Shown here: one piece after another, positions 2,799 through 57,842 of the stretch
Layout: every line of letters starts with the position of its first letter
Numbering within the stretch: the first letter of the stretch is position 1
DNA from: a virus
Length of the DNA: 57,842 nt
Reading direction: 5' to 3' (one strand)
IMG/VR virus record: IMGVR_UViG_3300029709_000016
The notes under the pieces: model-generated
Database searches by the model: none
The model's input: only the letters and a program-made list of their open reading frames with translations
Told to the model about the DNA's origin: nothing
Made by a program: the position numbers and the translations under genes

Positions 2799-3464
2799 AT
2801 GGCATTAACGCAAAAAGAAATTAGTCACAATTGTTACATAAGACGCAAAGAAAATGGATTATGTCCACGTTGCGGAAAGCCGCTTGACAGAACTGGTTAC
2901 TACTGTTCGGATTGTTTAAAGAAAAATAACGAACGTGAAAAAGAATTTCGTGAGTGGTGCAAAGAATACAAAATTTGTCCGCAATGCAAAAAAAACAAAC
3001 TTTTTGGCGATGAACATATTTGCCTGGAATGTTTAGCAAGAAAATCTATATACCGTGCAAACAATCCCATATCCGATGAAAAACAAAAACAATACAATGA
3101 GAGATTCAAAAAACAGCAGCGGGCGCTGTACCAGCAACGAAAAGAACAAGGTATTTGTACCCGTTGTGGTAAACGTCCAGCGGCAAAGCCTAAAGCCAAA
3201 TGTGCAATATGCTTAAAAAAGAACGCTCAAGCGCATAAAAAGCAATATTACGACAAAATAGATATAAAAGAGTATCGCAAAGCTAATAATCTATGCTACC
3301 ACTGCGGCAATCCTATAGACCGTGAAACAGGGCAGTTGTGCCAATCGTGTTGGGATAAATGCCGTGAAAATGGATTAAAAAGCCCACATGATAATACATA
3401 CTGGCGGCAGGACAATAACATAGTTTTTAAATGGAATCGAGGTGCTAAAAATGAACATAAATAG
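2799..3464 (+). CDS. multi-zinc-ribbon protein (four CxxC..CxxC units)
   Basis: Repeated CPRCGK..CSDCLKK, CPQCKK..CLECL, CTRCGK..CAICLKK, CYHCGN..CQSCW. Confidence 0.6.
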   Translation: MALTQKEISHNCYIRRKENGLCPRCGKPLDRTGYYCSDCLKKNNEREKEFREWCKEYKICPQCKKNKLFGDEHICLECLARKSIYRANNPISDEKQKQYNERFKKQQRALYQQRKEQGICTRCGKRPAAKPKAKCAICLKKNAQAHKKQYYDKIDIKEYRKANNLCYHCGNPIDRETGQLCQSCWDKCRENGLKSPHDNTYWRQDNNIVFKWNRGAKNEHK

Positions 3465-3605: not shown

Positions 3606-3815
3606 ATGAAAATTTCAGAATTGACTAAGCCGGAGCTTGAAAAAATCATTGAAAATGCCAATTTTACAGATGAAGAAGAAAGAATTTTTAAATTGCTTTC
3701 AAAAGGGAACACTATAACACAGATAGCAATTCGGGTATCACTTTGTGAAAGAACTGTTAATCGAAAAGTTATTAAAATCAAGCAAAAAATTAAGCGATTG
3801 GAGGATATTTTATGA
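3606..3815 (+). CDS. sigma-70 region-4-like / HTH transcriptional regulator (70 aa)
   Basis: Internal ATG with gaaagga RBS. Pattern FTDEEERIFKLLSKGNTITQIAIRVSLCERTVNRKV is HTH-like. Confidence 0.5.
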   Translation: MKISELTKPELEKIIENANFTDEEERIFKLLSKGNTITQIAIRVSLCERTVNRKVIKIKQKIKRLEDIL

Positions 3816-3922: not shown

Positions 3923-3960
3923 TAAAATGTGCTGTATCGTGATAAATGCGGCACATTTTA
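3923..3960. promoter_or_regulatory. Perfect 10-bp inverted repeat TAAAATGTGC-N18-GCACATTTTA just upstream of the integrase (attP or operator candidate)
   Basis: Read directly from the sequence. The spacer contains atcgtgataaatgcggca, which recurs inverted at 5386-5403. Confidence 0.4.
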
Positions 3961-3981
3961 TACTTTAGGAGGATATATACT

Positions 3982-5343
3982 ATGAAATGTGTTGCTTATA
4001 TGAGAGTATCGACAGAGAAACAGGCAGAAGAAGGTAACGGACTTGAAAGCCAAAAGCGCGATATTGAAAACTATTGCAGAAAAAATGAATTGATAATAGC
4101 TGATTGGTATGTTGATGAAGGATATACGGGTTCAAATATGAATCGCCCGGAATTGCAAAGGCTGATTACTGATTGTAGCCGCAAAAAAGTAAATTGCGTT
4201 GTTGCATTTAAGCTTGACCGTATTTCCCGAAGCATGGTTGACGGAATTTACATCATCGAAAAAGTATTCCAAAGCAATAATGTTGCGTTTAAATGTGTAC
4301 ATGACAGCATTAGTTATGACAGCCCTATGGAACAGGCATACACACAGATGATGGCAGTATTTGCACAACTCGACAAAAACACAATGATGTTGCGTATGCG
4401 CGGCGGTATGCTTGAACGTATTAAGCAAGGCTACTGGTGGGGTGGCGGCAATACGCCTTACTGTTATCGGTATGATAAAGAACAAGGAATATTAATTCCT
4501 ATCCAGGAAAGAGCAGAACAGGCAAGGAAAGCCTTGGAATTGTTTATTTCCGGCTATTCAGACGCGAAAATTAAAGAAATATGTGGCTTCAAATCTGAAT
4601 TAGTTACGCGAAAAGTGCTTACCGGAGTTGTAAATATTGGCATGATACCATACAAAGGCAATATCTATCAAGGCAAGCATAAACCGATTTTTGATAAAGA
4701 TAGATTTGAACTTGCTCAAGAATTGAGAAAATCAAGGTGCTCTGCAAAAATAAGTTGCTTTACTGAACCGAATTTACTCACAGGTTTGTGCTATTGCGGA
4801 GTGTGCGGTTGTAAAATGCGTTATCAAAAGTGGAGTAATGGGAATCACAAGATATATTGCTGTTCAAGAAATAAAGGCTTGAAATATCTTCCGAATTACA
4901 ATCCGAACTGCAATAATTCTCTTGAATGGGCCGACGATATAGAAAAGCAAGTTACTGATGAAATACTTAAAATTTCACTCAATTTGTCTTCTTACAAACC
5001 AAAAGCAAAAGAAACAAAGCTTGAAATTATGCAATCACAACTTGAGCGAGAACAAACAAAGCTTAAACGTCTATATAGCTTATATGCAGACGGCAATGAT
5101 ACTGTCTTGGAAATGATAAAAGATTTAGAATCGCAAATTTCAAAGACAAAAGAAGATATTTCTGTAGAAAGTAAAAATGCCATTAATACACAAAAGAAAG
5201 AATTTACTTATCAGAACATAAAAAAACTTGCCGATGTTTGGGACAACATCGACAAGAAACAAAAAAATTTCATACTGAAAACTATAATAGATAAAGTTAT
5301 TATAGTCAATGGAAATGTTGAAATTCAGTTAAAGAATTTTTAG
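3982..5343 (+). CDS. int: large serine recombinase (phage integrase)
   Basis: CVAYMRVSTEKQ catalytic-Ser motif, recombinase domain GYWWGGGNTPYCYRYD, zinc ribbon CYCGVCGCKMRY..YCCSRNK, C-terminal coiled coil. RBS aggagg. Confidence 0.9.
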   Translation: MKCVAYMRVSTEKQAEEGNGLESQKRDIENYCRKNELIIADWYVDEGYTGSNMNRPELQRLITDCSRKKVNCVVAFKLDRISRSMVDGIYIIEKVFQSNNVAFKCVHDSISYDSPMEQAYTQMMAVFAQLDKNTMMLRMRGGMLERIKQGYWWGGGNTPYCYRYDKEQGILIPIQERAEQARKALELFISGYSDAKIKEICGFKSELVTRKVLTGVVNIGMIPYKGNIYQGKHKPIFDKDRFELAQELRKSRCSAKISCFTEPNLLTGLCYCGVCGCKMRYQKWSNGNHKIYCCSRNKGLKYLPNYNPNCNNSLEWADDIEKQVTDEILKISLNLSSYKPKAKETKLEIMQSQLEREQTKLKRLYSLYADGNDTVLEMIKDLESQISKTKEDISVESKNAINTQKKEFTYQNIKKLADVWDNIDKKQKNFILKTIIDKVIIVNGNVEIQLKNF

Positions 5344-17525: not shown

Positions 17526-17596
17526 TGCCCTATAGCCAAGCGGTAAGGCACGGGATTTTGATTCCTGTATCACCGGTTCAAATCCGGTTAGGGTAG
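17526..17596 (+). tRNA. tRNA-Gln (anticodon UUG)
   Basis: Hand fold: acceptor tgcccta/tagggta, anticodon stem cggga/tcctg with loop ttTTGat, T arm accgg-ttcaaat-ccggt. Confidence 0.8.
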
Positions 17597-18151
17597 CTGG
17601 GCTTTTGATAGCCCTTTTGTCCCATTCTTTGGTACCCCCTTATCTCCCGTTAGCGGAAAGCTGATTAAAGGACCGTCACAAGGTCCGGCGGGATTTACAA
17701 ACATGATTACCCCGGTGAAGATAGGCTTTTCAACCTTGCCGGGATACACTGAATTGAGTTAAAGCTTTTCGGGATACTGGAAAGTGTAGGCTTTTTGCTT
17801 GAAGCAATTCAAGCAAAGAAGACAGCAAAGCTGGCAACAAAGTGGTGTAGTATATCATCATAAGGACGTCAAAAGTAGAATCCTTGTGGCTGACGAATAA
17901 TAAACGCTTGCGGTGCAAGAATAACCTGTTTGTGTTCGTGGTGTGAAAGACTACAAACAAAACAGGAATTTCATTAAGTCGGCTTGCCTTGAATCCGGGA
18001 AATTTGCAGGTTAAATTCGCTCCCTGTCCGTGCTTGACAGCGGTAAGAAGCCAAGGGTCGCACCCGGAAGCTCGGACTTATCGTCACGGTGACTGAATGT
18101 GACTGCGGGTATGATGAATAAAGAGAAGTCTTAATCATGTTTGTTTTTTTT
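17597..18151 (+). ncRNA. Large structured non-coding RNA candidate between two tRNAs (ROOL/GOLLD-like context; class unverified)
   Basis: ~555 nt with no credible ORF. Many hairpins, e.g. ggacc-N7-ggtcc (17670-17686), gcttgaa-GCAA-ttcaagc (17797-17814), cttgc-ggt-gcaag (17907-17919), cctgttt..aaacagg (17925-17966), and a long-range ccggg/cccgg pair (17994/18063). Confidence 0.45.
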
Positions 18152-18241
18152 GGAAAAGCGGCAACGATTGGCGGTGTTGCGGCAGACTGTAAATCTGTTC
18201 CCATGTGGTAAACATTGGCGGTTCGATTCCGCCCTTTTCCA
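18152..18241 (+). tRNA. tRNA-Tyr (anticodon GUA), class II with long variable arm
   Basis: Hand fold: acceptor ggaaaag/cttttcc, anticodon arm gcaga-ctGTAaa-tctgt, variable arm atgt-ggtaa-acat, T arm ggcgg-ttcgatt-ccgcc. Confidence 0.75.
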
Positions 18242-18279
18242 TTTTTTTAAAAAAATTAAAAATAAAAAAGAGGTGCAGT

Positions 18280-36664: not shown

Positions 36665-39127
36665 ATGAATAAAACGTATGGTCGTATAAATTGGGAAAAT
36701 TATCCGAGTGATGAAACACCACTGAATGAAAGTAATCTGAATAAAATAGATGTGGCTACAGATGAAATTGACAATAGGGTAATTACACTGGACACTACCA
36801 AAGCGACTAAGGAAGAAGTTTCAACACTGGTGCAGGACGTTACATTTGAAGAAAAGACAGGCATTATTACTATTACTAAAAAAAATGGCTCAAAAATAAC
36901 GATTGACACGCAGATGGAAAAAATCGCGGTAAATTTTTCATACAATGCCGAAACACAGCAGATTATTTTAACGCTTATTGACGGCACAAAGCAATATATA
37001 GACCTGACAGCACTGATTACGCAGTATGAGTTTTTGGCCAGTGATACGGTGGCATTTTCGATTGACGGCACCGGTAAAGTGTCTGCAATCGTAAAAGAAG
37101 CGAGCATACAGGAAAAGCATTTACAGCCTAATTATCTTGCAGATATTAAAGTTGAAGTTGCAAAAGCACAGGCAAGCCAGTCGGCGGCGGCAAAATCTGA
37201 AAGCAATGCAAAGGCAAGTGAAACAGCGGCGGCAACCAGTGAATCCAATGCGGCGGCGAGTGCTACAAAAGCACAGAGTTATGCTACTGGCGGTACAAAC
37301 AGCCGCACGGGCGAAGATACGGACAATGCAAAGTATTATAGCCAACAGTCGGCACAGAGCCAATCGGCGGCGGCAACAAGCGCAGATACGGCAAGTACGA
37401 AAGCAGAAGAAGCGGCGGCAAACGCGGCAACAGCTAAAACAAGTGCCGATAATGCCGCGGGAAGTGCAAATTTAGCCAATGAAAAGGCAAATAGCGCGGC
37501 AAATAGCGCAACCATCGCAGTTTCAAATTCCAATGCGGCACAGCAGTACGCTTCCAATGCGGCGGCAAGTGCGGACACAGCACAAAACTATGCCGTAGCA
37601 GATACAGACAGCGCAAAATACTATTACGAGCAGGCAAGACGGATTTCTGAATCGTTCTCGGGTGCATTAAGACCGATGGGAACGGTTACATTTGCAAATC
37701 TTCCGGCACTATCAGAAGCGGACGGCGGAAGCATGTATAACATTTCGGACCAGTTTACAACAACTGCTGAATTTAAAGAAGGAGCGGGAAATACTATTCC
37801 GGCAGGTGCTAACGTATACAAGACAGAGGACGGCAAGTGGGATGTCCTTGCGGGAACACCTGTAACAGGCGTAAAAGGCAGTGCAGAAAGCGAATATAGG
37901 AGAGGAAATGTTAATATTACAGCGGAAAATGTAGGACTTGGAAACGTTGACAATACAGCAGATTCCGCAAAGTCTGTAAAATATGCAGCAAGTGCAGGCA
38001 ACGTAAATTGGAACGGTATAACAGATAAACCGTCTACATATCCGCCGTCCAATCATAATCATGGCACAGCAGACCCCAATTTTACGTGTTTTTTAACAGA
38101 TAATACATCCGCAGGATTTTCGGCTTTGCATGACAACGGAGCTACAACAGGATTTTTCTTAAAAACCATCAGAGGACAGTCAACTGCTCCGAGCTGGTTT
38201 GAAGGCAACTATGCTTCCGGTATTGCTTTTGGCGGTGTAGATACCCATGCAGTGATTAGCTGTCGATATGAGTTCCCAAGAGTAACGTTCTGTGGTGGCA
38301 ATGGTACAGAACCGAATTGGTGGTATAGATTACAAGGTACAAGCGGACATAATTATATGTTAGACGATTTTATAACAACATCGGGTACTGACAGCCTTGC
38401 AGGTAGCATTGTTCCTAATGAAGATGTAGGCATGGAATTGGGAGATGAATCACACAGATTCACGAATATTTATTCAAGCAACATTACTACGGATACAATA
38501 CAATTCAATAATTATGATAATAGCGGCAATACAATTTATTATAGCGGTAACGATTCCGCAAATGGAAACGGTGGCGGGCTTAATAATCTGGTAATTCGGT
38601 CATGGTGGGGGGTATCGTTTACTTCCACGTGCGCTGACGGTCGGTACGGCGGCAAAAATCAAACTGCTGTAGGAATTGACTGTCGAGAAGGTATTGTTAA
38701 AGCGTATAATTTTGCGGGCTTAATAAATGGACACAGTGTTAATACAGACGTACCGTCAGACGCAAAATTTACGGATACAAAAGGAAGATATATTGGCACT
38801 ACCGTAACAAAGCCACAAGATAAAACAGAAATGTATATCACATATCTTTCAAGCGGTTATATTGTAATGGCAGGAAAAACAGTAAGCAAAAGCTATGCAA
38901 TGAATACACAATATGGAAATGCGTTTTGGGCACCGTTCACAATTTATTTGCCGCCTAATATTGTAAAAAATATTGACAGCGTGAATATTACTCCATTTGC
39001 GGAAACAGGGCTGATAAGTGCAAGCATAAACGGCTATACCAGCGAACAAATAACGGGATTTGTTTGGTCGCCACAAAACGAAACAAAAAGCATATCATTT
39101 CATGTTACCGTGCATGGAAGGGCATAA
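36665..39127 (+). CDS. tail fibre / receptor-binding protein (820 aa)
   Basis: Ala/Ser-rich fibre repeats (AAKSESNAKASETAAATSESNAAASATKAQSYA) and a globular C-terminus. Confidence 0.6.
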   Translation: MNKTYGRINWENYPSDETPLNESNLNKIDVATDEIDNRVITLDTTKATKEEVSTLVQDVTFEEKTGIITITKKNGSKITIDTQMEKIAVNFSYNAETQQIILTLIDGTKQYIDLTALITQYEFLASDTVAFSIDGTGKVSAIVKEASIQEKHLQPNYLADIKVEVAKAQASQSAAAKSESNAKASETAAATSESNAAASATKAQSYATGGTNSRTGEDTDNAKYYSQQSAQSQSAAATSADTASTKAEEAAANAATAKTSADNAAGSANLANEKANSAANSATIAVSNSNAAQQYASNAAASADTAQNYAVADTDSAKYYYEQARRISESFSGALRPMGTVTFANLPALSEADGGSMYNISDQFTTTAEFKEGAGNTIPAGANVYKTEDGKWDVLAGTPVTGVKGSAESEYRRGNVNITAENVGLGNVDNTADSAKSVKYAASAGNVNWNGITDKPSTYPPSNHNHGTADPNFTCFLTDNTSAGFSALHDNGATTGFFLKTIRGQSTAPSWFEGNYASGIAFGGVDTHAVISCRYEFPRVTFCGGNGTEPNWWYRLQGTSGHNYMLDDFITTSGTDSLAGSIVPNEDVGMELGDESHRFTNIYSSNITTDTIQFNNYDNSGNTIYYSGNDSANGNGGGLNNLVIRSWWGVSFTSTCADGRYGGKNQTAVGIDCREGIVKAYNFAGLINGHSVNTDVPSDAKFTDTKGRYIGTTVTKPQDKTEMYITYLSSGYIVMAGKTVSKSYAMNTQYGNAFWAPFTIYLPPNIVKNIDSVNITPFAETGLISASINGYTSEQITGFVWSPQNETKSISFHVTVHGRA

Positions 39128-42727: not shown

Positions 42728-42899
42728 ATGTACTGTCAATGCTTGAAATGTTGCGGCTAATATCTTTGAGTTCAACAAAATAACGACTTGATAATGCAAG
42801 CTTTTTGATTGAACAACATTTTTGATTAGATAAATACAACGCACATTCAGATTGGCAATTTTCAAAGTTGTTTAAAGGACATTTATTCAACGTGTTCAC
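42708..42899 (-). CDS. small Cys-rich protein (start uncertain)
   Basis: CPLNNFENCQSECALYLSNQKCC. SD ggaaagaggtga on the minus strand. Confidence 0.35.
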   Translation of the reverse strand: MNTLNKCPLNNFENCQSECALYLSNQKCCSIKKLALSSRYFVELKDISRNISSIDSTFTRRKC

Positions 42900-42946
42900 C
42901 TCTTTCCTATTAAAAGATAAGAGGATTATACCACAGAAAGGAGAAG
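42897..42946. repeat. Control-region repeat copy 2
   Basis: See 42360-42403. Confidence 0.7.
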
Positions 42947-42948
42947 AA

Positions 42949-43680
42949 ATGGCAGAAACGAATTTACAGGTTTTCAGTGGCGAGTTTGGAGAGATTCGAA
43001 CTTTGATAATTGATGATGAACCTTATTTTGTAGGCATTGATGTAGCCGAAAAGCTGGAGTACCAAAACGGTAGTCGAGATATAAAAGCTCATGTTGATGA
43101 TTGCGACAAAAAAATCATTCCTTTATTTGACGGCAGACAGAATAGACAGACAATAGTAATAAATGAGAGCGGATTTTATTCATTAGTATTTCAAAGCAAA
43201 ATGAAAAAAGCCAAGGAATTTAAGCACTGGGTAACGTCAGAAGTTCTTCCGTCAATCAGAAAGACGGGAAACTACAACATGAACATGACGGATGAGGAAA
43301 AAATTCGGCTTATTGCAAAAGGCAATGTGAAGCTGAATGAAAGAATCGACAAGGTTGAAGATAAAATATCTTCCCTTGAAAATGATATGCCGCTGTACGG
43401 CTGTGAAATAGACGAAGTTCAGAAGCATATTAAAAGGAAAGTAGTTGATGTACTGGGCGGCAAGAACACCAGCGCATACAAAGACAGTAGCGTGAGGAGT
43501 TCGGTATTTGCGGACATATACCGGCAGTTGAAACGCGAATACGGGTGTGTTTCGACATACAAGAGTATAAAACGCAAATACATTGCAGATGTACATGATT
43601 TTATTGATTGCTATTTGCCGCCGACCGTGCTTTTAGAACAGATTGAAAATTCCAATGCACAGATGTGCATGAGTTTTTAG
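42949..43680 (+). CDS. antirepressor (BRO-N domain + C-terminal ORF6C-like domain)
   Basis: LQVFSGEFGEIRTLIIDDEPYFVGIDVAEKLEY..ESGFYSLVFQSKMKKAKEFKHWVTSEVLPSIRKTG. Confidence 0.8.
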   Translation: MAETNLQVFSGEFGEIRTLIIDDEPYFVGIDVAEKLEYQNGSRDIKAHVDDCDKKIIPLFDGRQNRQTIVINESGFYSLVFQSKMKKAKEFKHWVTSEVLPSIRKTGNYNMNMTDEEKIRLIAKGNVKLNERIDKVEDKISSLENDMPLYGCEIDEVQKHIKRKVVDVLGGKNTSAYKDSSVRSSVFADIYRQLKREYGCVSTYKSIKRKYIADVHDFIDCYLPPTVLLEQIENSNAQMCMSF

Positions 43681-44436: not shown

Positions 44437-45030
44437 ATGAACAAAATTGAAATTAGCGGAAGAATCACAAAGGGGCAGGTTTTTTCTCACGAAAACCATG
44501 GTGAGAAATTTTATTCAACACAGATTACAAGTGTGAGAACGAGTGGCGTTCCGGACACGCTCAACGTTACATTTTCAGAAATTTTCCTTAAAAATATTAA
44601 GGAAGATGAACAGGTTGAAATTTTTGGAGAAATCCGAACAATGAACTATGACGGTCACTGTCACATCTTTGTATTCGCAAAAGACGTTACAGAGTATCCG
44701 GGAAAAGACGGAAATTTTGCGGAACTGGACGGATATATCTGTCGTGAACCAATTTTCCGTGAAACGCCGCTGAATAGAAAAATTACTGACTTACTGGTAG
44801 CAAGTAACCGGAAGTACGGAAAATCAGATTACATTCCTTGCGTTGCATGGGGAAGAAAAGCTGTTAAGGCAGGGCTTATGAATGTGGGTGAAAAAATCTC
44901 TTGTACCGGCAGACTACAAAGCCGTGAATATCTGAAAAGGTATGAAGACGGCACAGAAGAAATCAAGACAGCCTACGAATTGTCAATCAATAATTTACGA
45001 GAGGGGGATTCCGAAAATGGCGAAGATTAA
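44437..45030 (+). CDS. tandem OB-fold ssDNA-binding-like protein (putative)
   Basis: Two SSB/PriB-like halves (IEISGRITKG.. and AELDGYICREP..CVAWGRKA..GEKISCTGRLQSREY). Confidence 0.4.
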   Translation: MNKIEISGRITKGQVFSHENHGEKFYSTQITSVRTSGVPDTLNVTFSEIFLKNIKEDEQVEIFGEIRTMNYDGHCHIFVFAKDVTEYPGKDGNFAELDGYICREPIFRETPLNRKITDLLVASNRKYGKSDYIPCVAWGRKAVKAGLMNVGEKISCTGRLQSREYLKRYEDGTEEIKTAYELSINNLREGDSENGED

Positions 45031-45211
45031 GATTTCGAAGAAACGGTATGAAGCACTTTTGGACACAGAAACAAGAGTTCAAGTGCTTTTGAGCAAAACA
45101 AAAGCGGATAAGTACATATCACTGGTGGACATGTACAGAATTTTGGGAAATGAGTTTGAAGCCCAAAAAATTGAAAAAGAAAGGGACAAGGTGGAATGGG
45201 ATGAAGATTAA
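45017..45211 (+). CDS. small protein (64 aa)
   Basis: Internal ATG after gaggggg. Confidence 0.4.
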   Translation: MAKIKISKKRYEALLDTETRVQVLLSKTKADKYISLVDMYRILGNEFEAQKIEKERDKVEWDED

Positions 45212-47138
45212 GCTGTTAAAAATTATATTAGAAAATTTCATGTGTTATGCGCATGAAGAATTTAACTTCTTTGATTTAACAAAAATCGCCGCAATGAACG
45301 GCAAAGGAAAATCCAGTATTGCTACGGCATACAACTGGTGCCTGTTTAACTGTGATTATGAATTAAAAGATAATCCGGTTGTGCGCCGGGAAGTAGGTGG
45401 AAAGCCTGTTGATGATATGGACACCAGTTCAACACTGGTGCTTGATGTTGACGGGAAAGAAGTAATTATGAAAAAAGTGCAGAAGCGTACCTACAGTAAG
45501 GATGGCAGCAGTTATAAGGACGATAACAAGTATTTCGTCAACGATGTGCCTAAGACATTAAAGGATTTTAACGCGTATCTTGATGTTGATATGAACGTGT
45601 TTAAGATGTGTAGTAATGTGAACGCATTTCTTAATCAGAAACCGGCAGACATGAGAGAATATTTATTCAATTTAGTAGAGGACGTTTCTGATATTGATGT
45701 AGCACGCCAGCAGACCGAATTAGCCGAGTTAGTTCCACTGTTGAACAAATATGCGGCAGAGGAATTATTGGCTATGAATAAGGCTATCAAGACCAAAATT
45801 ACAAAGGATTTGCCTATTCTTGACGGACAGATTAAGGAAAAGGAAAGAGATATACAGCTTAAACAGGCCGTAGATACATCTGACCTTGAATTACAGAAGA
45901 ACAGCCTTAAAGAGCAGATTGCCGATTGTGTAGCAAAGCAGACTGACAATGATAAGCTGTTATCCGGATATGATAAGGCAAGTACCGATATTATCAATCT
46001 TAAATTTGAACTGAATGACATGGGTCGCAAGGCAAATGAAGAAAATTTCAAACAGAGAAGACGGATTGATGATGAAATCGTTGACGTCAAGCGTAAGATT
46101 GATGAAATTTCAAGAAGCATTAAAACAGCTAATGATGAAATCGAAAAAGCCAATGCAGTTATTGGCAGATACACGCTTGAATTGCAGGAAGCTAGGGGGA
46201 CGTGGACGAAATTACATGAAATGCAGTTTGACGAAAATGAAAAAATTTGTCAGATGTGCGGACAGGAGTTGCCGGCAGACAAAGTTGAATTGCTTATTAA
46301 AAACTTTGAATCTAAAAAGGCTTCGGCACTCGAAAGCGAAGCTGAAAGGGGCAACAAGATTAAATTTCTTGTGGATTCAGAAAGAGAATCTGTTGCTAAA
46401 TTGAATGAAGAAATTGCTACACACGAATCCGAAAAAAAAGAACAGGAAGCGAAGTTAAAAGACCTTGAAAGCCAATTAGCGGCACTTCCAGTTGAAATTG
46501 ATGTAACAGGAACAGACGAATACAAGGCACTTGAACAGCAGATAGTTGAAAAGGAAGAAGCTATGCACAAGGCTAATGATATTTCAGCAGTCAAGGCAGA
46601 ATTAAAAGCACAGGAAACAGCTTTAAGGCAGCAGTTAGCAGAATGTGAAAGCCGGATTGCAAAGTCTGATACGGCAGCAGACGAACAGCGACTTGAGGAA
46701 TTAAAGCAGACAAGGATTGATTCTGAACAGAATAAGGCTAATGCGGAGAAAATCCTTGATTTACTTGATGAATTAGACAAAGCGAAGAATGAAGCTTTGA
46801 CAGAAGCAGTAAGCAGCCATTTTGGGTTAGTTAAGTGGCAGTTGTTTGAATATGCCAAGAATGGCAATTACAAGAGCTGTTGCATACCGACAGTAGATGG
46901 TAAGTCAATTCTTACCACTATGTCAAACAAAGGTAACAGAATACTGGGCAAACTTGATATTTGTAATAGTATTCAAAAAATCAGTAACTTGTCAGTGCCA
47001 ATTTTCTTAGACGACAGCGAAAGCTTATCGTCTGATAATCAAAGGAAAGTTGCAAATATGATTAACAGCCAGTTGATTATGTTGATTGTTAATAACAGCG
47101 ATAAATTAGAAATTTTAAATGGAAGTGAGGAAAATTAA
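45201..47138 (+). CDS. SbcC/Rad50-like AAA ATPase with long coiled coil
   Basis: Walker A NGKGKSS, a ~350-aa coiled coil with a central CQMCGQ hook-like motif, Walker B PIFLDDSESL. Confidence 0.7.
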   Translation: MKIKLLKIILENFMCYAHEEFNFFDLTKIAAMNGKGKSSIATAYNWCLFNCDYELKDNPVVRREVGGKPVDDMDTSSTLVLDVDGKEVIMKKVQKRTYSKDGSSYKDDNKYFVNDVPKTLKDFNAYLDVDMNVFKMCSNVNAFLNQKPADMREYLFNLVEDVSDIDVARQQTELAELVPLLNKYAAEELLAMNKAIKTKITKDLPILDGQIKEKERDIQLKQAVDTSDLELQKNSLKEQIADCVAKQTDNDKLLSGYDKASTDIINLKFELNDMGRKANEENFKQRRRIDDEIVDVKRKIDEISRSIKTANDEIEKANAVIGRYTLELQEARGTWTKLHEMQFDENEKICQMCGQELPADKVELLIKNFESKKASALESEAERGNKIKFLVDSERESVAKLNEEIATHESEKKEQEAKLKDLESQLAALPVEIDVTGTDEYKALEQQIVEKEEAMHKANDISAVKAELKAQETALRQQLAECESRIAKSDTAADEQRLEELKQTRIDSEQNKANAEKILDLLDELDKAKNEALTEAVSSHFGLVKWQLFEYAKNGNYKSCCIPTVDGKSILTTMSNKGNRILGKLDICNSIQKISNLSVPIFLDDSESLSSDNQRKVANMINSQLIMLIVNNSDKLEILNGSEEN

Positions 47139-47744
47139 ATGAGTAGAGAACTGGAACTTGCAAGAGAACCTGTGAGAAAGTTGGAAGAAGCAGAAAAGAC
47201 TAATAAGGTACAGTTATCAGAATTACAGCCAGGAGAAACGTTTAAAATCGGAGAACATGATTTTATCGTTCTTGAGCAGAACGTTTGCAATGGCACAACA
47301 AATGTAATATCTAAAGGCTTTATGGCAAAGGGTATTGTTTTTGACAGCAATACAAGAGATTACAACAAATCTAATCTTAAAAGAGCTATTGAAGAAAACA
47401 TCCAACCGGTCATTGAATCAGAGATTGGAGCAGGCAACATTATTAAACAGGCGGTTAGCTTAACATCTGTTGATATGCAAGATGAGTTTAAGCCTTGTTA
47501 TTGCAAGGTAAGACCGATAACGTTTAACGAAGCAAGAAAGTATAACAATTTGCTTTTTAATAAAGGATTGGACGATTGGTGGTGGACATGTACGCCTTGG
47601 AGTACGGCTGACAGGTGTTGGGAATGTACTGTAGCCGTTGTTTCGCCGTCCGGCGATGTCCGCAACTACGGCTGTGGCGACTGCTACGGTGTTCGCCCTT
47701 TTTGTATCTTAAAATCTAATATCTTTGTATCAAAAGGAGAATGA
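47139..47744 (+). CDS. DGR variable protein 1 (201 aa)
   Basis: C-terminus DDWWWTCTPWS..VAVVSPSGDVRNYGCGDCYGVRPFCI carries VR1. No signal peptide. Confidence 0.85.
   Translation: MSRELELAREPVRKLEEAEKTNKVQLSELQPGETFKIGEHDFIVLEQNVCNGTTNVISKGFMAKGIVFDSNTRDYNKSNLKRAIEENIQPVIESEIGAGNIIKQAVSLTSVDMQDEFKPCYCKVRPITFNEARKYNNLLFNKGLDDWWWTCTPWSTADRCWECTVAVVSPSGDVRNYGCGDCYGVRPFCILKSNIFVSKGE
47631..47707 (+). repeat. DGR variable repeat VR1
   Basis: 77-nt alignment to the TR. 16 differences, all at TR adenines, plus one C/T difference in the 3-prime IMH-like end. Confidence 0.9.
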
Positions 47745-48352
47745 TTATGACATTGACAATGAAAAGCTTGCAGGAGCAGATTAATGAATTAAGAAATGAA
47801 GTTGCTGTTTTAAAAGCATTTGAAAAGACAAGAAAGATTCCTACCGGGTTAAGTGTAGGAGATACATTTAAACTTGCTGGGCTTACATGGACAATCCTTG
47901 ATATTACAGATAAAGGATATATGTGTATTGCTGACAGATTAGAGGATTCAATGAAATTTGATAGTGAATCAAATAATTGGGTTGGAAGTCAGTTGAGAGG
48001 ATATCTCAACACGAAATTTATTAAAAAAATTGCTGATGAGATAGGGGAAGAAAATATCGTTTCGTTTAATCGAAATCTTCTTTCGCTTGACGGTCAAGAT
48101 GAATATGGAAACTGCAAAGACACAGTATCTTTATTGACCGTAGATGACTACCGCAAGTACAGAAGATTTATTCCGAATACTGACGATTGGTGGTGGCTTG
48201 CAACACCATGGAGTACAAAGCGTAATAGCTATGAATATTCCGTTGCCGTTGTTTCGCCGTCCGGCAATTTCAACTACCACGGCTGTGTCAACTACTACGG
48301 TGTTCGCCCTTTTTGTATCTTTTCATCTGAACTCTTTGAATCAGAGGATTAG
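47741..48352 (+). CDS. DGR variable protein 2 (203 aa), paralog of protein 1
   Basis: C-terminus DDWWWLATPWS..VAVVSPSGNFNYHGCVNYYGVRPFCI carries VR2. ATGA overlap with target 1. Confidence 0.85.
   Translation: MIMTLTMKSLQEQINELRNEVAVLKAFEKTRKIPTGLSVGDTFKLAGLTWTILDITDKGYMCIADRLEDSMKFDSESNNWVGSQLRGYLNTKFIKKIADEIGEENIVSFNRNLLSLDGQDEYGNCKDTVSLLTVDDYRKYRRFIPNTDDWWWLATPWSTKRNSYEYSVAVVSPSGNFNYHGCVNYYGVRPFCIFSSELFESED
48243..48319 (+). repeat. DGR variable repeat VR2
   Basis: 77-nt alignment to the TR. 13 differences, all at TR adenines, plus the same 3-prime C/T difference. Confidence 0.9.
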
Positions 48353-48355
48353 TAA

Positions 48356-48727
48356 ATGGCAGAAACAGATTTAAAAGTTATTTTAAAAGCAAAAGAACTG
48401 GCAGAACATACTTTGAGGATAACTTCAAATTGTAACCGATACCCGAAAAAATACAGATTTTCATTGGTAGATAAAATGCAGAATAAATCACTTGAAATCT
48501 ATGAATATTTGTATGAAGCCAATTGGACAGACTTGAAATTATATCGCAGAGAACGGTCAGAGCTGCAGACCAAAGCAATAACACATTGCGATGAATTGCT
48601 ATTTTATATTGAATTATCAATGAAACTGAACATTGTTAATGTAAAAAGCATGGAATACTGGTCGAAAATGGTTTCTGACATTAAGCATATGGCGATTGCT
48701 TGGAGAACCAAAGACAGAGGAAGATAA
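48356..48727 (+). CDS. avd: Avd-like accessory variability determinant (four-helix-bundle family)
   Basis: 123 aa, basic. YPKKYRFSLVDKMQNKSLEIYEYLYEAN pattern. Lies between the targets and the TR. Confidence 0.7.
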   Translation: MAETDLKVILKAKELAEHTLRITSNCNRYPKKYRFSLVDKMQNKSLEIYEYLYEANWTDLKLYRRERSELQTKAITHCDELLFYIELSMKLNIVNVKSMEYWSKMVSDIKHMAIAWRTKDRGR

Positions 48728-48751
48728 AATATTATAGGTTACGCACTGTAT

Positions 48752-48828
48752 AAACCGTTGTTTCGCCGTCCGGCAATATCAACAACAACAACTGTAACAA
48801 CAACAACGGTGTTCGCCCATTCTGTATC
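48752..48828 (+). repeat. DGR template repeat (TR)
   Basis: Non-coding copy with eight AAC codons in the VR frame (aat atc aac aac aac aac tgt aac aac aac aac). 3-prime end cccattctgtatc versus VR ccctttttgtatc. Confidence 0.9.
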
Positions 48829-48926
48829 AAACAGGCAGTAAGAGTAGGCAATAAGCCGAAATCAGTAAAAGATACAAAAAAGTGCGCAACCTTTCCTAAA
48901 AGGATAAAAACAAAGGAATTATTACT

Positions 48927-49955
48927 ATGGATAAAGATATTATTTGTGATTATGAAAATTTGTACAAGGCTTATAAAAAAGCTAAAGCAGGCAAAGGCTT
49001 CAATGGAAGCAGTGCTAGGTTTCAGATGATGAATCTTGAGGGACTACATATGTTAAAAGAACAACTTGAAAATCAAACATATAGGGTGAATCCGTACAAT
49101 GAATTTAAGGTTTATGAGCCAAAGGAAAGAGTGATTAAGTCGTGTTCTTTTAAAGATAAAGTAGTACAGCATTGCTTGTGCGATAATGTGCTGCACCCGC
49201 AGTTGTCTAGTGAATTTATCAGAACGAATTATGCCGGACAAACAGGAAAAGGCACACATTTTGGAATGGATTGTTTGAAAGAGCAAATGCTTGAATTTTA
49301 CAAACAGCACGGGCTTGATGGTTGGATTTTGAAATGCGATATTACGAAGTTTTTCTATCAAATAAACCGCGATATTCTGAAAGACATAGTTGATTACTGT
49401 TTCAATGATGAGTATACAGTGTGGCTGAATCATCTATACATTGACAGTACTGACGGTTTGGGACTTCCACTTGGCAATCAAGTAGCACAAGTATACGCAT
49501 TACTTATGCTAAATGGGTTAGACCATTTTGTAACAGGCGAGTTAGGAGTGAAACTATATGGCAGATATATGGACGATTTTTATTTGATAGCGCCGAGCAA
49601 ATATTATTTGAAATGGTGTCTTGAATGTATTCGGCGGTTTGTGGAAAGTCTTGGACTATCCTTGAACGGAAAAACGCAAATAATTCCATTTAGAAGTGGA
49701 ATTTTATTTACAGGCTTTCATCATTATATCACAAAAGACGGAAAGTACATAAGAAAATTAACCAATACTAATAAGCGCAGAATCCGAAAGCGACTGCGCA
49801 AGTGGTGCAAGTTGGTTAAAACAGGGAGAATGACAGAGAAGAAGTTTTATGAAAAATACAATGCGTGGAGAAATCATGCGTTGCATGGAAATTGCATAAA
49901 GCTGTGTCATTCAATGGATTTATATGTAAAAGAATTATTAGAAAGAGAGGAATAA
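48927..49955 (+). CDS. DGR-type reverse transcriptase (342 aa)
   Basis: ILKCDITKFFYQI, GLPLGNQVAQVYA (DGR-type I/LGxxxSQ-like motif), GRYMDDFYLI (YMDD). Confidence 0.9.
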   Translation: MDKDIICDYENLYKAYKKAKAGKGFNGSSARFQMMNLEGLHMLKEQLENQTYRVNPYNEFKVYEPKERVIKSCSFKDKVVQHCLCDNVLHPQLSSEFIRTNYAGQTGKGTHFGMDCLKEQMLEFYKQHGLDGWILKCDITKFFYQINRDILKDIVDYCFNDEYTVWLNHLYIDSTDGLGLPLGNQVAQVYALLMLNGLDHFVTGELGVKLYGRYMDDFYLIAPSKYYLKWCLECIRRFVESLGLSLNGKTQIIPFRSGILFTGFHHYITKDGKYIRKLTNTNKRRIRKRLRKWCKLVKTGRMTEKKFYEKYNAWRNHALHGNCIKLCHSMDLYVKELLEREE

Positions 49956-49957
49956 TT

Positions 49958-50698
49958 ATGGCAGAGAATACGCAGTTAGTTGAATATGAATCAAATGGAG
50001 AAATGGTAAAAATTTCTCCAACAATGATAAGGAGATACCTTGTAAGCGGTGGTGGTAATGTATCTGACGGAGAAGTAATGATGTTTATGTCATTATGCAG
50101 ATACCAGCACTTAAATCCGTTTTTGAGAGAAGCATACCTTATTAAGTATGGAAGCAACGAGCCCGCCACAATAGTTACTGGAAAAGATGTTTTTACAAAG
50201 AGAGCCAATGCAGACCCACGATATAAAGGAAAGAAAGCAGGAATTATTGTAATTAAAAAGGACGGAGCTGTTGAAGAGCGAGAGGGAACAATGGTTTTAC
50301 CTAACGAAACCATCGTAGGTGGCTGGGCGAAAATCTTTATTGACGGAAAAGAGGACGAATACCAGTCAGTAGGTTTTGACGAATATGCTGGAAGAAAAAA
50401 GGACGGCTCACTCAATAGCCAGTGGGCAAAAAAACCAGCTACAATGATTAGAAAGGTTGCTGTCGTACAGGCTTTAAGGGAAGCATTTCCAGATAGATTC
50501 CAAGGCTTGTATGCACAGGAAGAATTTCAGAATATATCAGATGTAAAACTTGATACAGAAAAGGTTGTTGCTGATGAGGTTAAAGAGAACGCAAACACAG
50601 TAGATTTTGAGGAAAGCGACATTATCGACACCACAGCCACAGAAGTAACCGAAGAACAGGCAGAAGACAGTACGCTTCCACCGTTTATGCAGGAATAG
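49958..50698 (+). CDS. recT: RecT-family single-strand annealing recombinase
   Basis: ISPTMIRRYLVSGGG..FMSLCRYQHLNPFLREAYLIKYG..WAKKPATMIRKVAVVQALREAFP. Confidence 0.85.
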   Translation: MAENTQLVEYESNGEMVKISPTMIRRYLVSGGGNVSDGEVMMFMSLCRYQHLNPFLREAYLIKYGSNEPATIVTGKDVFTKRANADPRYKGKKAGIIVIKKDGAVEEREGTMVLPNETIVGGWAKIFIDGKEDEYQSVGFDEYAGRKKDGSLNSQWAKKPATMIRKVAVVQALREAFPDRFQGLYAQEEFQNISDVKLDTEKVVADEVKENANTVDFEESDIIDTTATEVTEEQAEDSTLPPFMQE

Positions 50699-51143: not shown

Positions 51144-51407
51144 AATGGCAGTTGTTTATGTTGAATGCGAAGGTGTTATTGCCAAAGTTGGTGATAAAAG
51201 ATATGTAATGGGTAGTTATTCAACAGAAAAAAGGCAGTTAAGGCTATGGAAATGTTGAGGGAGCATAATGAGGGTGTCATTTTTCTCAAAACAATAATAA
51301 ATACCGAAAAAGGTACTCCGTTCGTAAGTGGTTTGTCGAAAACTGATTTTAACAAGCTGACGCAGAATTATTTTCAGTTTCCACAGGATAATGAAATCGA
51401 GGTGTGA
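51100..51407 (+). pseudogene. Small conserved-looking gene interrupted by a frameshift at an A6 run (51227-51232)
   Basis: Strong RBS aaaggag. Frame 1 gives MRVISQDGIIDVPYEMAVVYVE..SYSTEK and stops at 51256-51258. The -1 frame continues as KAVKAMEMLREHNEGVIFLK..FQFPQDNEIEV to 51407. Confidence 0.55.
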
Positions 51408-51409
51408 GT

Positions 51410-52138
51410 ATGAGATTAAAATGCTTAGGCTCATCGTCAGCCGGAAATTGCTATCTGCTAACTTCCGACAGTGGAGAAACACTTATCCTTGATTGTGGAA
51501 TACCGATTAAGGAAATCAAGAAAGGCTTGGATTGGAACATAAGAAATGTGGTTGGCTGCATAGTCAGCCACGTTCATTCAGACCACAGCAAGTCAGTAAA
51601 GGATTTTAAAGCTATGGGAATACCAGTATTTGCCCCATACATAAGCGAAAAACCTATGAAAATTGGTAATGGAGATTTTAGAGTACAGGCATTTTACCTA
51701 ACAACAATAGACGGAAGCTGGACACATACCAATGCAGACGGAACACCTTGCCCGATATTCGGATTTCTGATTACTCACAAGGAAATGGGGAGAATGCTTT
51801 ACATAACCGATTGTGAATTAATCAAGTGGAAGTTTAAAGACATAAACCACATTCTCTTAGGTGTGAATTATGACAAGGATTTAATCGACAGGGATAACAC
51901 AGGCAAAGCTAATCACGTTTTCAGAGGTCACTTATCCATTGACACAGCTTGCGATTTTGTTAAAGCAAATCATTCAGACAACTTGCAGAACGTCATAATG
52001 TGCCATCTATCAAGTGAAAATTCTGATAGATATAGTTTTATCGAGAAGATGAAAAAAGTTGCTTGCGGGGCAAATGTGAGTGTTGCAGAAGCCAATAAAG
52101 AATGGATTCTAAAAAATCCGAATGAATGTCCGTTTTAG
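51410..52138 (+). CDS. MBL-fold metallo-hydrolase (phage nuclease-like)
   Basis: GSSSAGNCYLL..LILDCG..HVHSDH motif. Confidence 0.8.
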   Translation: MRLKCLGSSSAGNCYLLTSDSGETLILDCGIPIKEIKKGLDWNIRNVVGCIVSHVHSDHSKSVKDFKAMGIPVFAPYISEKPMKIGNGDFRVQAFYLTTIDGSWTHTNADGTPCPIFGFLITHKEMGRMLYITDCELIKWKFKDINHILLGVNYDKDLIDRDNTGKANHVFRGHLSIDTACDFVKANHSDNLQNVIMCHLSSENSDRYSFIEKMKKVACGANVSVAEANKEWILKNPNECPF

Positions 52139-57131: not shown

Positions 57132-57842
57132 CTTTATTTGACTTTATGAGAGAGCCAGTTTCCATAACGAAGCCTATTCGATTAATAGAGCTTTTTGCTG
57201 GTTATGGAAGTCAAGCTATGGCGCTAAAGAGAATAGGTGCTAAATTTGAGCATTACAGAGTTGTGGAGTTTAATAAGTATGCTATAGCAAGCTATAACGC
57301 AGTGCACGGCACAGATTTTCCTACAATGGATATAACTAAGGTTCATGCAGAAGATTTGAATATCTGCGACACAAATGCATTCACTTACTTACTTACTTAC
57401 TCATTTCCTTGTACGGATTTATCAGTTGCTGGGAAACAAGCCGGAATGTCTAAGGGCAGCGGCACAAGAAGCGGTCTGTTGTGGGAAGTTGAGAGAATAC
57501 TAACAGAAATCAGAGATAGCAACGGAGAATTGCCACAGATTTTATTCATGGAGAATGTGCCACAAGTACATAGTCAGGATAATATGCCTGATTTTAGAAA
57601 GTGGATAGATTTCCTTGAAAGCCTTGGCTACACAAATTACTATCAAGATTTAAACGCTAAAAATTATGGGGTAGCACAAAATCGTGAAAGGTGTTTTATG
57701 TTTTCATTCCTGGGCGAGTACAATTACCATTTTCCACAGCCTATACCACTCAAAAAGAAGTTGAAAGACTATCTTGAGGATAATGTAGATGAAAAGTATT
57801 ACATCAACAATGAAAAGGCTGGCAAACTGATAAAACAGCTTA
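57116..57842 (+). pseudogene. DNA (cytosine-5)-methyltransferase, N-terminal catalytic half (continues across the junction to base 143)
   Basis: ATG at 57116. Translation contains IELFAGYGS (motif I), SFPCTDLS (motif IV), FMENVPQV (motif VI) and AQNRERCF (motif VIII). The frame runs off the window end and resumes at base 3. Confidence 0.9.

Follow-up and report, generated by a model that had tools for sequence, protein, structure and literature searches.

A two-target diversity-generating retroelement in the early operon of a gut Lachnospiraceae phage, with an adenine-specific footprint and a covarying RNA scaffold

The virus record IMGVR_UViG_3300029709_000016 of IMG/VR (57,842 nucleotides, the whole stretch analyzed here and called the window) carries, between positions 47139 and 49955, a region that the initial annotation described as a complete diversity-generating retroelement (DGR). 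Does this locus hold a DGR with all its parts, is it still at work and what are the two proteins that it varies? All components named for it were found, and each of the proposed tests that was run favored a DGR. We consider it very probable that the region is a functional-looking, canonical DGR with the order target 1 (T1)–target 2 (T2)–avd–template repeat (TR)–spacer–reverse transcriptase (RT), located in the early operon of a temperate phage of gut Lachnospiraceae whose genome is complete and siphovirus-like.

The template repeat, the variable repeats and their adenine footprint

Machine alignment placed the TR (48752-48828) without gaps against two variable repeats (VRs), VR2 at 48243-48319 and VR1 at 47632-47708, in a frame of 77 nt. 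VR1 had initially been put one base too low, at 47631-47707, where 61 mismatches to the TR are obtained, and a shift by +1 corrects this. The sequence of 46800-50300 was read through, and a repeat finder returned a single family of three copies with start-to-start spacings of 611 and 509 nt. The 77-nt frame of the TR contains 24 adenines, as had been counted. VR1 differs from the TR at 17 of the 77 positions, 16 of them TR adenines, and VR2 at 14 positions, 13 of them TR adenines. The remaining mismatch is the same in both VRs, C48822>T, and is the sole non-adenine change in either of them. The initial annotation had given 16 and 13 differences, all at adenines; the adenine counts stood and the totals had to be raised by the shared change, which it had correctly placed as a single non-adenine difference near the 3' end, in the zone of the initiation of mutagenic homing sequence (IMH) and its TR counterpart (IMH*). 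The tabulation of mismatches by TR base is thus adenine-specific, with hypergeometric p values for the adenine bias of 8e-10 for VR1 and 1.6e-7 for VR2. The two VRs differ from each other at 10 positions, and 10/10 are TR adenines. When every A of the TR core was replaced by N, the resulting pattern was found at three places in the 57.8-kb window with 0 mismatches and at none in 100 shuffles. Exactly three matches mean that the window has no remote VRs.

On the strength of the ungapped alignment and the pattern matches, the non-coding TR was delimited to 48753-48828 (+ strand), with the adenine-mutagenized part at 48753-48819. VR1 corresponds to 47633-47708 (+), its mutable part to 47633-47699 and its IMH (GGTGTTCGCCCTTTTTGTATC) to 47688-47708; VR2 corresponds to 48244-48319 (+), its mutable part to 48244-48310 and its IMH to 48299-48319. 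The IMH* of the TR (+ strand) consists of a GC-rich block at 48808-48818 followed by 48819-48828, and departs from the IMH at 48819 and 48822 and, in relatives, at 48820. The last bases of both VRs are GGTGTTCGCCCTTTTTGTATC and those of the TR GGTGTTCGCCCATTCTGTATC, so that an IMH and a non-identical IMH* are both present. VR1 and VR2 end 12 and 11 codons, respectively, ahead of the stop codons of their genes.

In the reading frame of the VRs, the TR has the codons ACC GTT GTT TCG CCG TCC GGC AAT ATC, four times AAC, TGT, four times AAC, GGT GTT CGC CCA TTC TGT ATC, which would read T V V S P S G N I N N N N C N N N N G V R P F C I. The eight AAC codons noticed initially are all there, and together with AAT, ATC and ACC they make 11 variable codons. 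By this count, randomizing the 11 codons is predicted to give about 6e11 peptide variants per target.

Relatives of the RT were found at 558 loci in IMG/VR and at 406 loci in the species-representative genome set, and the TR and VRs of each fetched locus were located by BLAST. The footprint was then tabulated for positions 48755-48818 over 120 full-length TR–VR pairs from 71 IMG/VR phage loci. Mismatches were seen at 1282 of 2299 adenines (55.8%) and at 43 of 5381 non-adenines (0.8%), and the substitutions at mismatched sites were to G (671), T (489) and C (122). Among the 120 VRs 118 distinct sequences were counted, versus 31 among the TRs. At non-adenine positions where a TR deviates from the consensus of the family, the VR has the base of its own TR in 511 of 521 cells; this tracking of lineage-specific substitutions is direct evidence for repeated one-way transfer from TR to VR. 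The VRs of one locus also differ from each other at TR-adenine sites only, in the window as well as in relatives, which supports the initial claim of independent homing into VR1 and VR2.

The same pairs delimit the transferred segment. Positions 48751 (not an adenine) and 48752 were always mismatched and 48753/48754 varied like adenine sites; the segment therefore begins at 48753/48754. Toward the 3' end, A48826, within the template:primer duplex predicted below, was changed in 0 of 119 pairs and A48819, three bases upstream of that duplex, in 75 of 120. The fixed IMH/IMH* differences of the relatives lie at 48822 (113/120) and 48820 (66/120), and the flanking non-adenine positions match.

Nearly all loci have two VRs, about 610 nt apart and 5' of avd. 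The adenine-only pattern was also found in at least 70 Clostridia genome loci, down to 52% RT identity, and the two-target cassette reaches genomes of Oscillospiraceae, Acutalibacteraceae and Christensenellaceae (52-60% RT identity). One locus (L053) has three tandem VR-bearing targets (VRs at 3114-3190, 3719-3792 and 4321-4394), adenine-specific with respect to a single TR.

Could the three copies be ordinary paralogous repeats, homogenized by gene conversion, with the non-coding copy as a pseudogene fragment, the adenine bias a product of chance and the RT an unrelated retron or group II enzyme? The two targets are true paralogues (35% identity), and some similarity between their repeats is to be expected. 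This explanation is nevertheless effectively refuted by the size of the adenine bias in the window and over the 120 pairs and by the fidelity with which the VRs follow their own TR; the RT and the RNA described in the next section speak against it as well.

The reverse transcriptase, Avd and the predicted RNA scaffold

The open reading frames (ORFs) of avd (accessory variability determinant; 48356-48727, + strand, 123 aa) and of the RT (48927-49955, + strand, 342 aa, with the LGNQVAQ and YMDD motifs) are as initially described. The RT matched RVT_1 with 52 bits, and its nearest solved relative was the Bordetella DGR RT (PDB 8ub7; E 1.6e-34 over residues 4-318) and not a group II (5e-13) or retron-type (1e-11) enzyme. 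The nearest phage RTs were those of the DGRs of nd12, nd4 and Faecalibacterium phages. By name, the top match in NCBIfam was a group II RT/maturase (94 bits versus a cut-off of 300), which could be taken in favor of the gene-conversion explanation; this match and those to Drt and retron RTs were far below threshold, and NCBIfam gave nothing better because the library has no DGR RT model. The Rfam scan of the window returned no family for the DGR RNA and no intron or retron RNA; its matches, a ROOL RNA and a tRNA, lie elsewhere in the window. YMDD was present in 148 of 151 related loci, and the RT ORF was intact in 147 of them.

The 123-aa ORF matched the DGR Avd model NF033474 (DivGenRetAVD), as did 36 of its 37 orthologues, and also Pfam bAvd (E 4.6e-4) and 23S_rRNA_IVP (E about 5e-4). 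No sequence-level match was obtained in the PDB, the protein being too diverged to match bAvd there.

The spacer (Sp) RNA that separates the TR from the RT gene (48829-48926, + strand, 98 nt) was strikingly conserved across the whole locus set. It carries two hairpins and one strand each of two long-range helices, all on the + strand. Helix 1, the predicted stop duplex, joins 48736-48747 (AGGTTACGCACT, in the avd–TR gap) with 48881-48892 (AGTGCGCAACCT) through 11 bp and one A.C. Helix 2, the predicted template:primer duplex, joins the 3' end of the TR at 48823-48828 (TGTATC) with 48871-48876 (GATACA) through 6 bp. Helix 3 (hairpin A) is formed by 48847-48849/48855-48857 (GGC/GCC) and helix 4 (hairpin B) by 48894-48896/48902-48904 (TCC/GGA). 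Hairpin B is followed by an A-rich run (48905-48916), next to which lies the ribosome-binding site of the RT gene. The stop duplex of the window appears to combine an 'ACGCAC' upstream strand, which occurs elsewhere with GTGTGT or GTGCGT, with a 'GTGCGC' spacer strand, which occurs elsewhere with GCGTGC; this combination was shared by one locus (L014) only.

When 30 close relatives were aligned with plain MAFFT, 99.0% of the cells in these helices were paired versus 25-45% when the partners were slid by 1-3 columns, and compensatory double changes were detected in 11 pairs (9/12 in helix 1 and 2/3 in helix 4). The covariance model built from that alignment took in 79 loci, with 96.8% of cells paired and compensatory changes in 20/24 pairs, including 10/12 in helix 1 and 6/6 in helix 2; this 79-locus alignment is one fitted to the model. 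In unconstrained duplex predictions helix 2 switched across clades between TGTATC/GATACA, TGGTG/CACCA, TGAGG/CCTCC and TGATTA/TAATCA. RNAalifold, run on a two-clade MAFFT alignment, missed the long-range helices through misalignment, and clade-restricted alignments with the covariance model were used instead. Duplexfold also proposed that the spacer GATACA pairs with TGTAT at 48747-48751, immediately 5' of the TR. This was rejected, since changes in that motif (TGTTT, TGCAT, CGTAA and others) are not compensated and the pairing with the 3' end of the TR covaries. The covariation shows that RNA pairing brackets the TR; the chemistry is what we infer by analogy. The covarying duplexes enclose exactly the transferred segment, which would not fit gene conversion between paralogues.

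The cryo-EM structure of the Bordetella BPP-1 ribonucleoprotein (RNP) offers a model for this chemistry. There, TR 117-129 pairs with Sp 47-56 as the template:primer duplex and Sp A56 primes, and the synthesis of complementary DNA (cDNA) is limited by the 'cPRT Stop', an 11-bp avd:Sp duplex with a short stem-loop and adenosines. The RNA of the window is alike in having a template:primer duplex and an upstream:spacer duplex of about 11-12 bp followed by a stem-loop and adenosines. It differs in the place of the stop duplex's upstream strand, which is found in the avd–TR intergenic gap instead of inside avd.

By this analogy, the RNA from about 48730 to the start of the RT gene would fold such that the helices 48736-48747/48881-48892 and 48823-48828/48871-48876 bracket the template, and RT and Avd would bind it. 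cDNA would be primed in cis from spacer A48876, with the first base placed opposite C48822, would run 5'-ward through the TR and would stop near 48748-48752, a few bases ahead of the upstream duplex. These predicted priming and stop points agree with the transfer limits from 48753 to 48819 and with the immunity of A48826. The adenine-only footprint suggests that the RT misincorporates opposite template adenines, and VR1 or VR2, each on its own, would then be replaced by the mutagenized cDNA with the shared IMH GGTGTTCGCCCTTTTTGTATC as guide, in the TR-to-VR direction that the tracking of the VRs reveals.

Activity of the element in the window's lineage

Is the element still at work? In the family, three loci (L051, L054 and L056) are 99.9-100% identical in RT, avd and TR and have VRs that differ at 13-17 of 74 bases, with 0-2 differences in the 300 bases just upstream. 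Diversification in the family must therefore have been recent. Internal stops in the RT were noticed in a few relatives, namely L056 (codon 184, LGN*VAQ), L007 and L157. Since L056, otherwise identical to L051 and L054, has VRs unlike theirs, its RT loss, unless it is a sequencing error, post-dates diversification.

The hypervariability expected of the VRs was thus borne out at adenine sites across related genomes and not in the consensus VRs of the window's own lineage. This and several further observations weigh against the preferred reading of a functional-looking, canonical DGR. The exact T2 protein of the window was encoded by contigs in 43 blocks of the assembly collection, and in all nine places fetched (8 contigs, 8 samples) VR1 was identical to that of the window. 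Other single-nucleotide polymorphisms (SNPs) in eight of these places numbered 0-10 over 4.1-6.6 kb, and the ninth (L162) diverges just after the TR. In the 90% cluster of T2, four VR2 alleles were counted among 15 members, and the allele NFRYNRCYDSN was common to several backbones. The RT of the window has Ala for Ser, with the Gln retained, in motif 4, whose usual signature in DGR RTs is [LIV]GxxxSQ; the AQ form was present in 76 related loci and prevails in the close clade, and other relatives had SQ (LGNQISQ, LGNQVSQ or LGNQTSQ). The match of Avd to NF033474 (E 1.5e-11, 44.5 bits) did not reach the equivalog cut-off of 80. The stop duplex contains the single A.C mismatch, at 48741/48887. 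No hairpin or cruciform was detected 3' of VR1 or VR2, where the 66 nt from the IMH folded like shuffles (z +1.37 and +0.31); such a structure is the BPP-1-type homing enhancer and is not universal among DGRs. The AlphaFold models of T2 had mean predicted local distance difference test (pLDDT) scores of 59.5 (38-sequence alignment) and 52.4 (82-sequence alignment), with values below 50 in the VR region. For cDNA synthesis, mutagenesis and homing at this locus, the evidence is an evolutionary footprint.

Some of these observations would suit an element that is a DGR by descent and is now inactive or heavily attenuated in the window's lineage, its VRs being frozen records kept by selection on the targets. 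Both VRs are identical in the nine places although other SNPs are present, one VR2 allele is shared across several backbones, the 12-position stop duplex has its A.C mismatch, and the RT of L056 has a nonsense codon and yet this locus has distinct VRs. On the other hand, the window keeps an intact RT ORF with its YMDD, as well as avd, the adenines of the TR, the IMH and every one of the RNA helices. Other lineages with diversified VRs also have single mismatches in the stop duplex. Moreover, the nine places were chosen by their identical T2 protein, so that only VR1 is an unbiased test, and minority VR variants are invisible in consensus assemblies. We regard an inactive element as unlikely, though well worth bearing in mind. 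For the functional-looking DGR that we prefer, the identity of the VRs in the window's lineage despite other SNPs points to episodic homing, and activity in this lineage is at best episodic and may at present be low.

One further locus touches on the window's lineage. The 65.5-kb ENA scaffold XIEH16-1_SAMEA3449375 scaffold_508 (L162/L168) holds the target–avd–TR block in two copies. One copy is the same as the window over its whole length. The other is near-identical as far as the TR end, with 10 clustered SNPs in 46769-46817; beyond it, starting at 48830, the divergence is about 15-20%, the RT has 350 aa and RecT is missing. Two explanations fit, a recombinant joined where the TR meets the spacer or a chimeric assembly of two co-resident strains.

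The target proteins, their genomic setting and known systems

Which proteins would such an element vary? T1 (47139-47744, + strand) and T2 (47747-48352, + strand) have 201 aa each, the length of T2 being counted from the ATG at 47747, with another in-frame ATG upstream at 47741. A protein identical to T2 (P0001, 201 aa) has been called in public assemblies. In both targets an N-terminal helix is followed by a DUF6273 domain with the VR near the C-terminus. T1 and T2 matched phrog_9958 (E 7.6e-30 and 2.3e-50, respectively). T2 also exceeded the Pfam DUF6273 cut-off of 23.5 (38.5 bits) and T1 remained under it (18.6 bits); in the combined T1/T2 family, DUF6273 was matched by 81 of 82 members.

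DUF6273 has been described as a C-type-lectin-like domain that DGRs of gut phages target at its C-terminal end (PMC10743442, PMC11792537, bioRxiv 10.1101/2024.10.15.618418), and the published targets include small single-domain proteins with helix flanks as well as two-target cassettes. T1 and T2 are presumably ligand-binding proteins. The poor AlphaFold models gave no confirmation of a lectin fold; the homologues available for them were too alike (66-100% and 79-94% identity). Foldseek found no PDB match at E <= 0.001 for the better T2 model. In the PDB, neither the targets nor Avd matched Mtd, TvpA or bAvd by sequence or by profile; the sole match was a weak one, of the target profile to an IgA protease that has DUF6273 as its N-terminal domain.

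The N-terminal helix of T2 (47747-47830, residues 5-28) has a heptad pattern (L8, I12, L15, V19 and L22), and the N-terminal region of T1 (47139-47230) is a predicted helix with a heptad pattern as in T2. The pattern suggests coiled-coil oligomerization of the lectin-like domains. The cysteines C123, C180 and C190 of T2 are invariant.

The setting of these genes is that of a whole phage. Bases 1-111 of the window are repeated exactly at 57732-57842, and the genome is therefore complete, circularly closed or terminally redundant, with 57,731 bp and 38.4% GC. It encodes a serine integrase (3946-5343), the large terminase, portal, major head protein, tail proteins (with a 1414-aa ORF in the tail region), an endolysin and an anti-repressor (42868-43680). 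The serine integrase and the anti-repressor indicate a temperate phage. The DGR lies in a packed operon on the + strand that consists of SSB (44437-45030), an AAA_23 ATPase (45150-47138), T1, T2, avd, TR, RT, RecT (49958-50698), YopX and a metallo-beta-lactamase (MBL)-fold protein. The cassette is about 7 kb from the endolysin gene and far from the tail genes. A scan of 42.5-52.5 kb gave 31 promoter-like sites versus 29.3 expected and no + strand terminator within the cassette.

The closest genome-borne relatives are metagenome-assembled genomes of Agathobacter, Acetatifactor and other Lachnospiraceae, and Lachnospira intestinalis is the annotated source of one T1 homologue. When the 21-kb structural module was compared with GenBank phages by megablast, nothing matched, and the DGR region had one partial match (66% identity), to an unannotated fecal contig. 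In distant relatives the cassette has other flanks, an integrase and an S24/HTH (CI-like) repressor in L101 and ParB-like and terminase genes in L106. It is thus a portable module that usually resides in early or accessory regions and not by the tail genes.

This setting raises the possibility of a working DGR whose targets are not receptor-binding proteins of the virion. They would be early-expressed soluble coiled-coil/lectin binders that act in the infected cell or once lysis has set them free, with variable host factors as one possible kind of ligand. The cassette is packed within the SSB/AAA_23 ATPase/RecT/YopX operon, distant from the endolysin and tail genes; in distant relatives it adjoins integrase and CI-like repressor genes or ParB-like genes; the targets have about 200 aa, no recognizable tail- or capsid-attachment domain was found in them, and small DUF6273 targets of unknown function are described in the literature. 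Conversely, the conserved C123, C180 and C190 of T2 suggest disulfides and hence an extracellular role, weak matches of the targets to phrog_10993 ('Hoc-like head decoration') were obtained, and, according to the literature, every phage DGR target studied by experiment is a protein of the virion surface. We judge this role quite improbable. The proposal that T1 and T2, encoded next to the lysogeny switch in distant relatives, are made early as soluble binders, are not receptor-binding proteins of the virion and are varied by the DGR against host or competitor molecules that themselves vary is likewise put forward as highly speculative.

Other features of the genome were recorded along the way. 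A full-length ROOL RNA (RF03087; 17687-18152, + strand, 236 bits versus a gathering threshold of 99) lies just 5' of the packaging module, flanked by tRNA-Gln (17526-17597) and tRNA-Tyr (18151-18242). The MBL-fold protein 3' of the DGR (51404-52138), kept in 66 of 81 related loci, showed a faint match to Apyc1, an anti-Pycsar nuclease (E 0.0044, 17 bits versus a cut-off of 50). An 820-aa protein of the tail region (36665-39127) matched a PHROG 'kinase' over its N-terminal 190 residues (E 4e-43), followed by tail-fiber-like segments. It has no match to the TR pattern and hence is not among the targets of the DGR.

Catalogued DGRs number more than 30,000. Compared with the DGR of BPP-1 (mtd-avd-TR-brt), the one described here has the same target–avd–TR–spacer–RT order, an RT homologous over its full length to 8ub7, the adenine-specific footprint and an IMH/IMH* made of a GC-rich block and then a few fixed differences. 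BPP-1 diversifies one 381-aa Mtd protein at the tail-fiber tip, whereas the window has two tandem DUF6273 targets of about 200 aa. The TR of BPP-1 has 134 nt and that of the window 76 nt, and the hairpin/cruciform downstream of the VR in BPP-1 has no counterpart here. The RT of the window has LGNQVAQ, its Avd is too diverged to match bAvd in the PDB, and its cassette belongs to the early recombination operon of a phage of Firmicutes.

The closest RT of a GenBank phage is that of nd12 (48.8% identity). In the metagenomic gut phages nd12 and nd4 one TR also serves two DUF6273 targets (Baykov et al. 2023, PMC10743442), and their 'target2' is, like T1 and T2, a small single-domain DUF6273 protein with short helix flanks and a C-terminal VR. 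The other target of nd12 and nd4 is a large 'tentaclin', in which DUF6273 with an N-terminal VR is combined with Ig-like domains, and the genomes are those of myoviruses. In the window both targets are small paralogues with C-terminal VRs, and the genome is siphovirus-like with a long tape-measure gene. The Faecalibacterium prophages Lelie, CP11 and Toutatis-like (PMC11792537, bioRxiv 10.1101/2024.10.15.618418) are likewise temperate phages of gut Clostridia, with two DUF6273 VRs at the C-terminus of the domain, the TR between avd and RT, and RTs about 40% identical to that of the window. Their targets are one large and one small, sometimes 17 kb apart, whereas those of the window are adjacent, of similar size and directly 5' of avd. 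Dual DUF6273 targets in phages of gut Clostridia have thus already been published, and the element of the window adds little in kind.

Its value lies elsewhere. The large family with a conserved cassette is a good natural data set for the evolution of DGRs. The helices supported by covariation lend independent support to the generality of the Bordetella RNP architecture, with cis-priming and a stop duplex, and yield predictions of the priming nucleotide and of the cDNA limits in a DGR of Firmicutes. The phage belongs to an abundant lineage of the human gut, which would make it tractable for asking what small DUF6273 targets do outside the structural module. If they do act as soluble early binders, this would be a use of DGRs by phages outside tropism switching.

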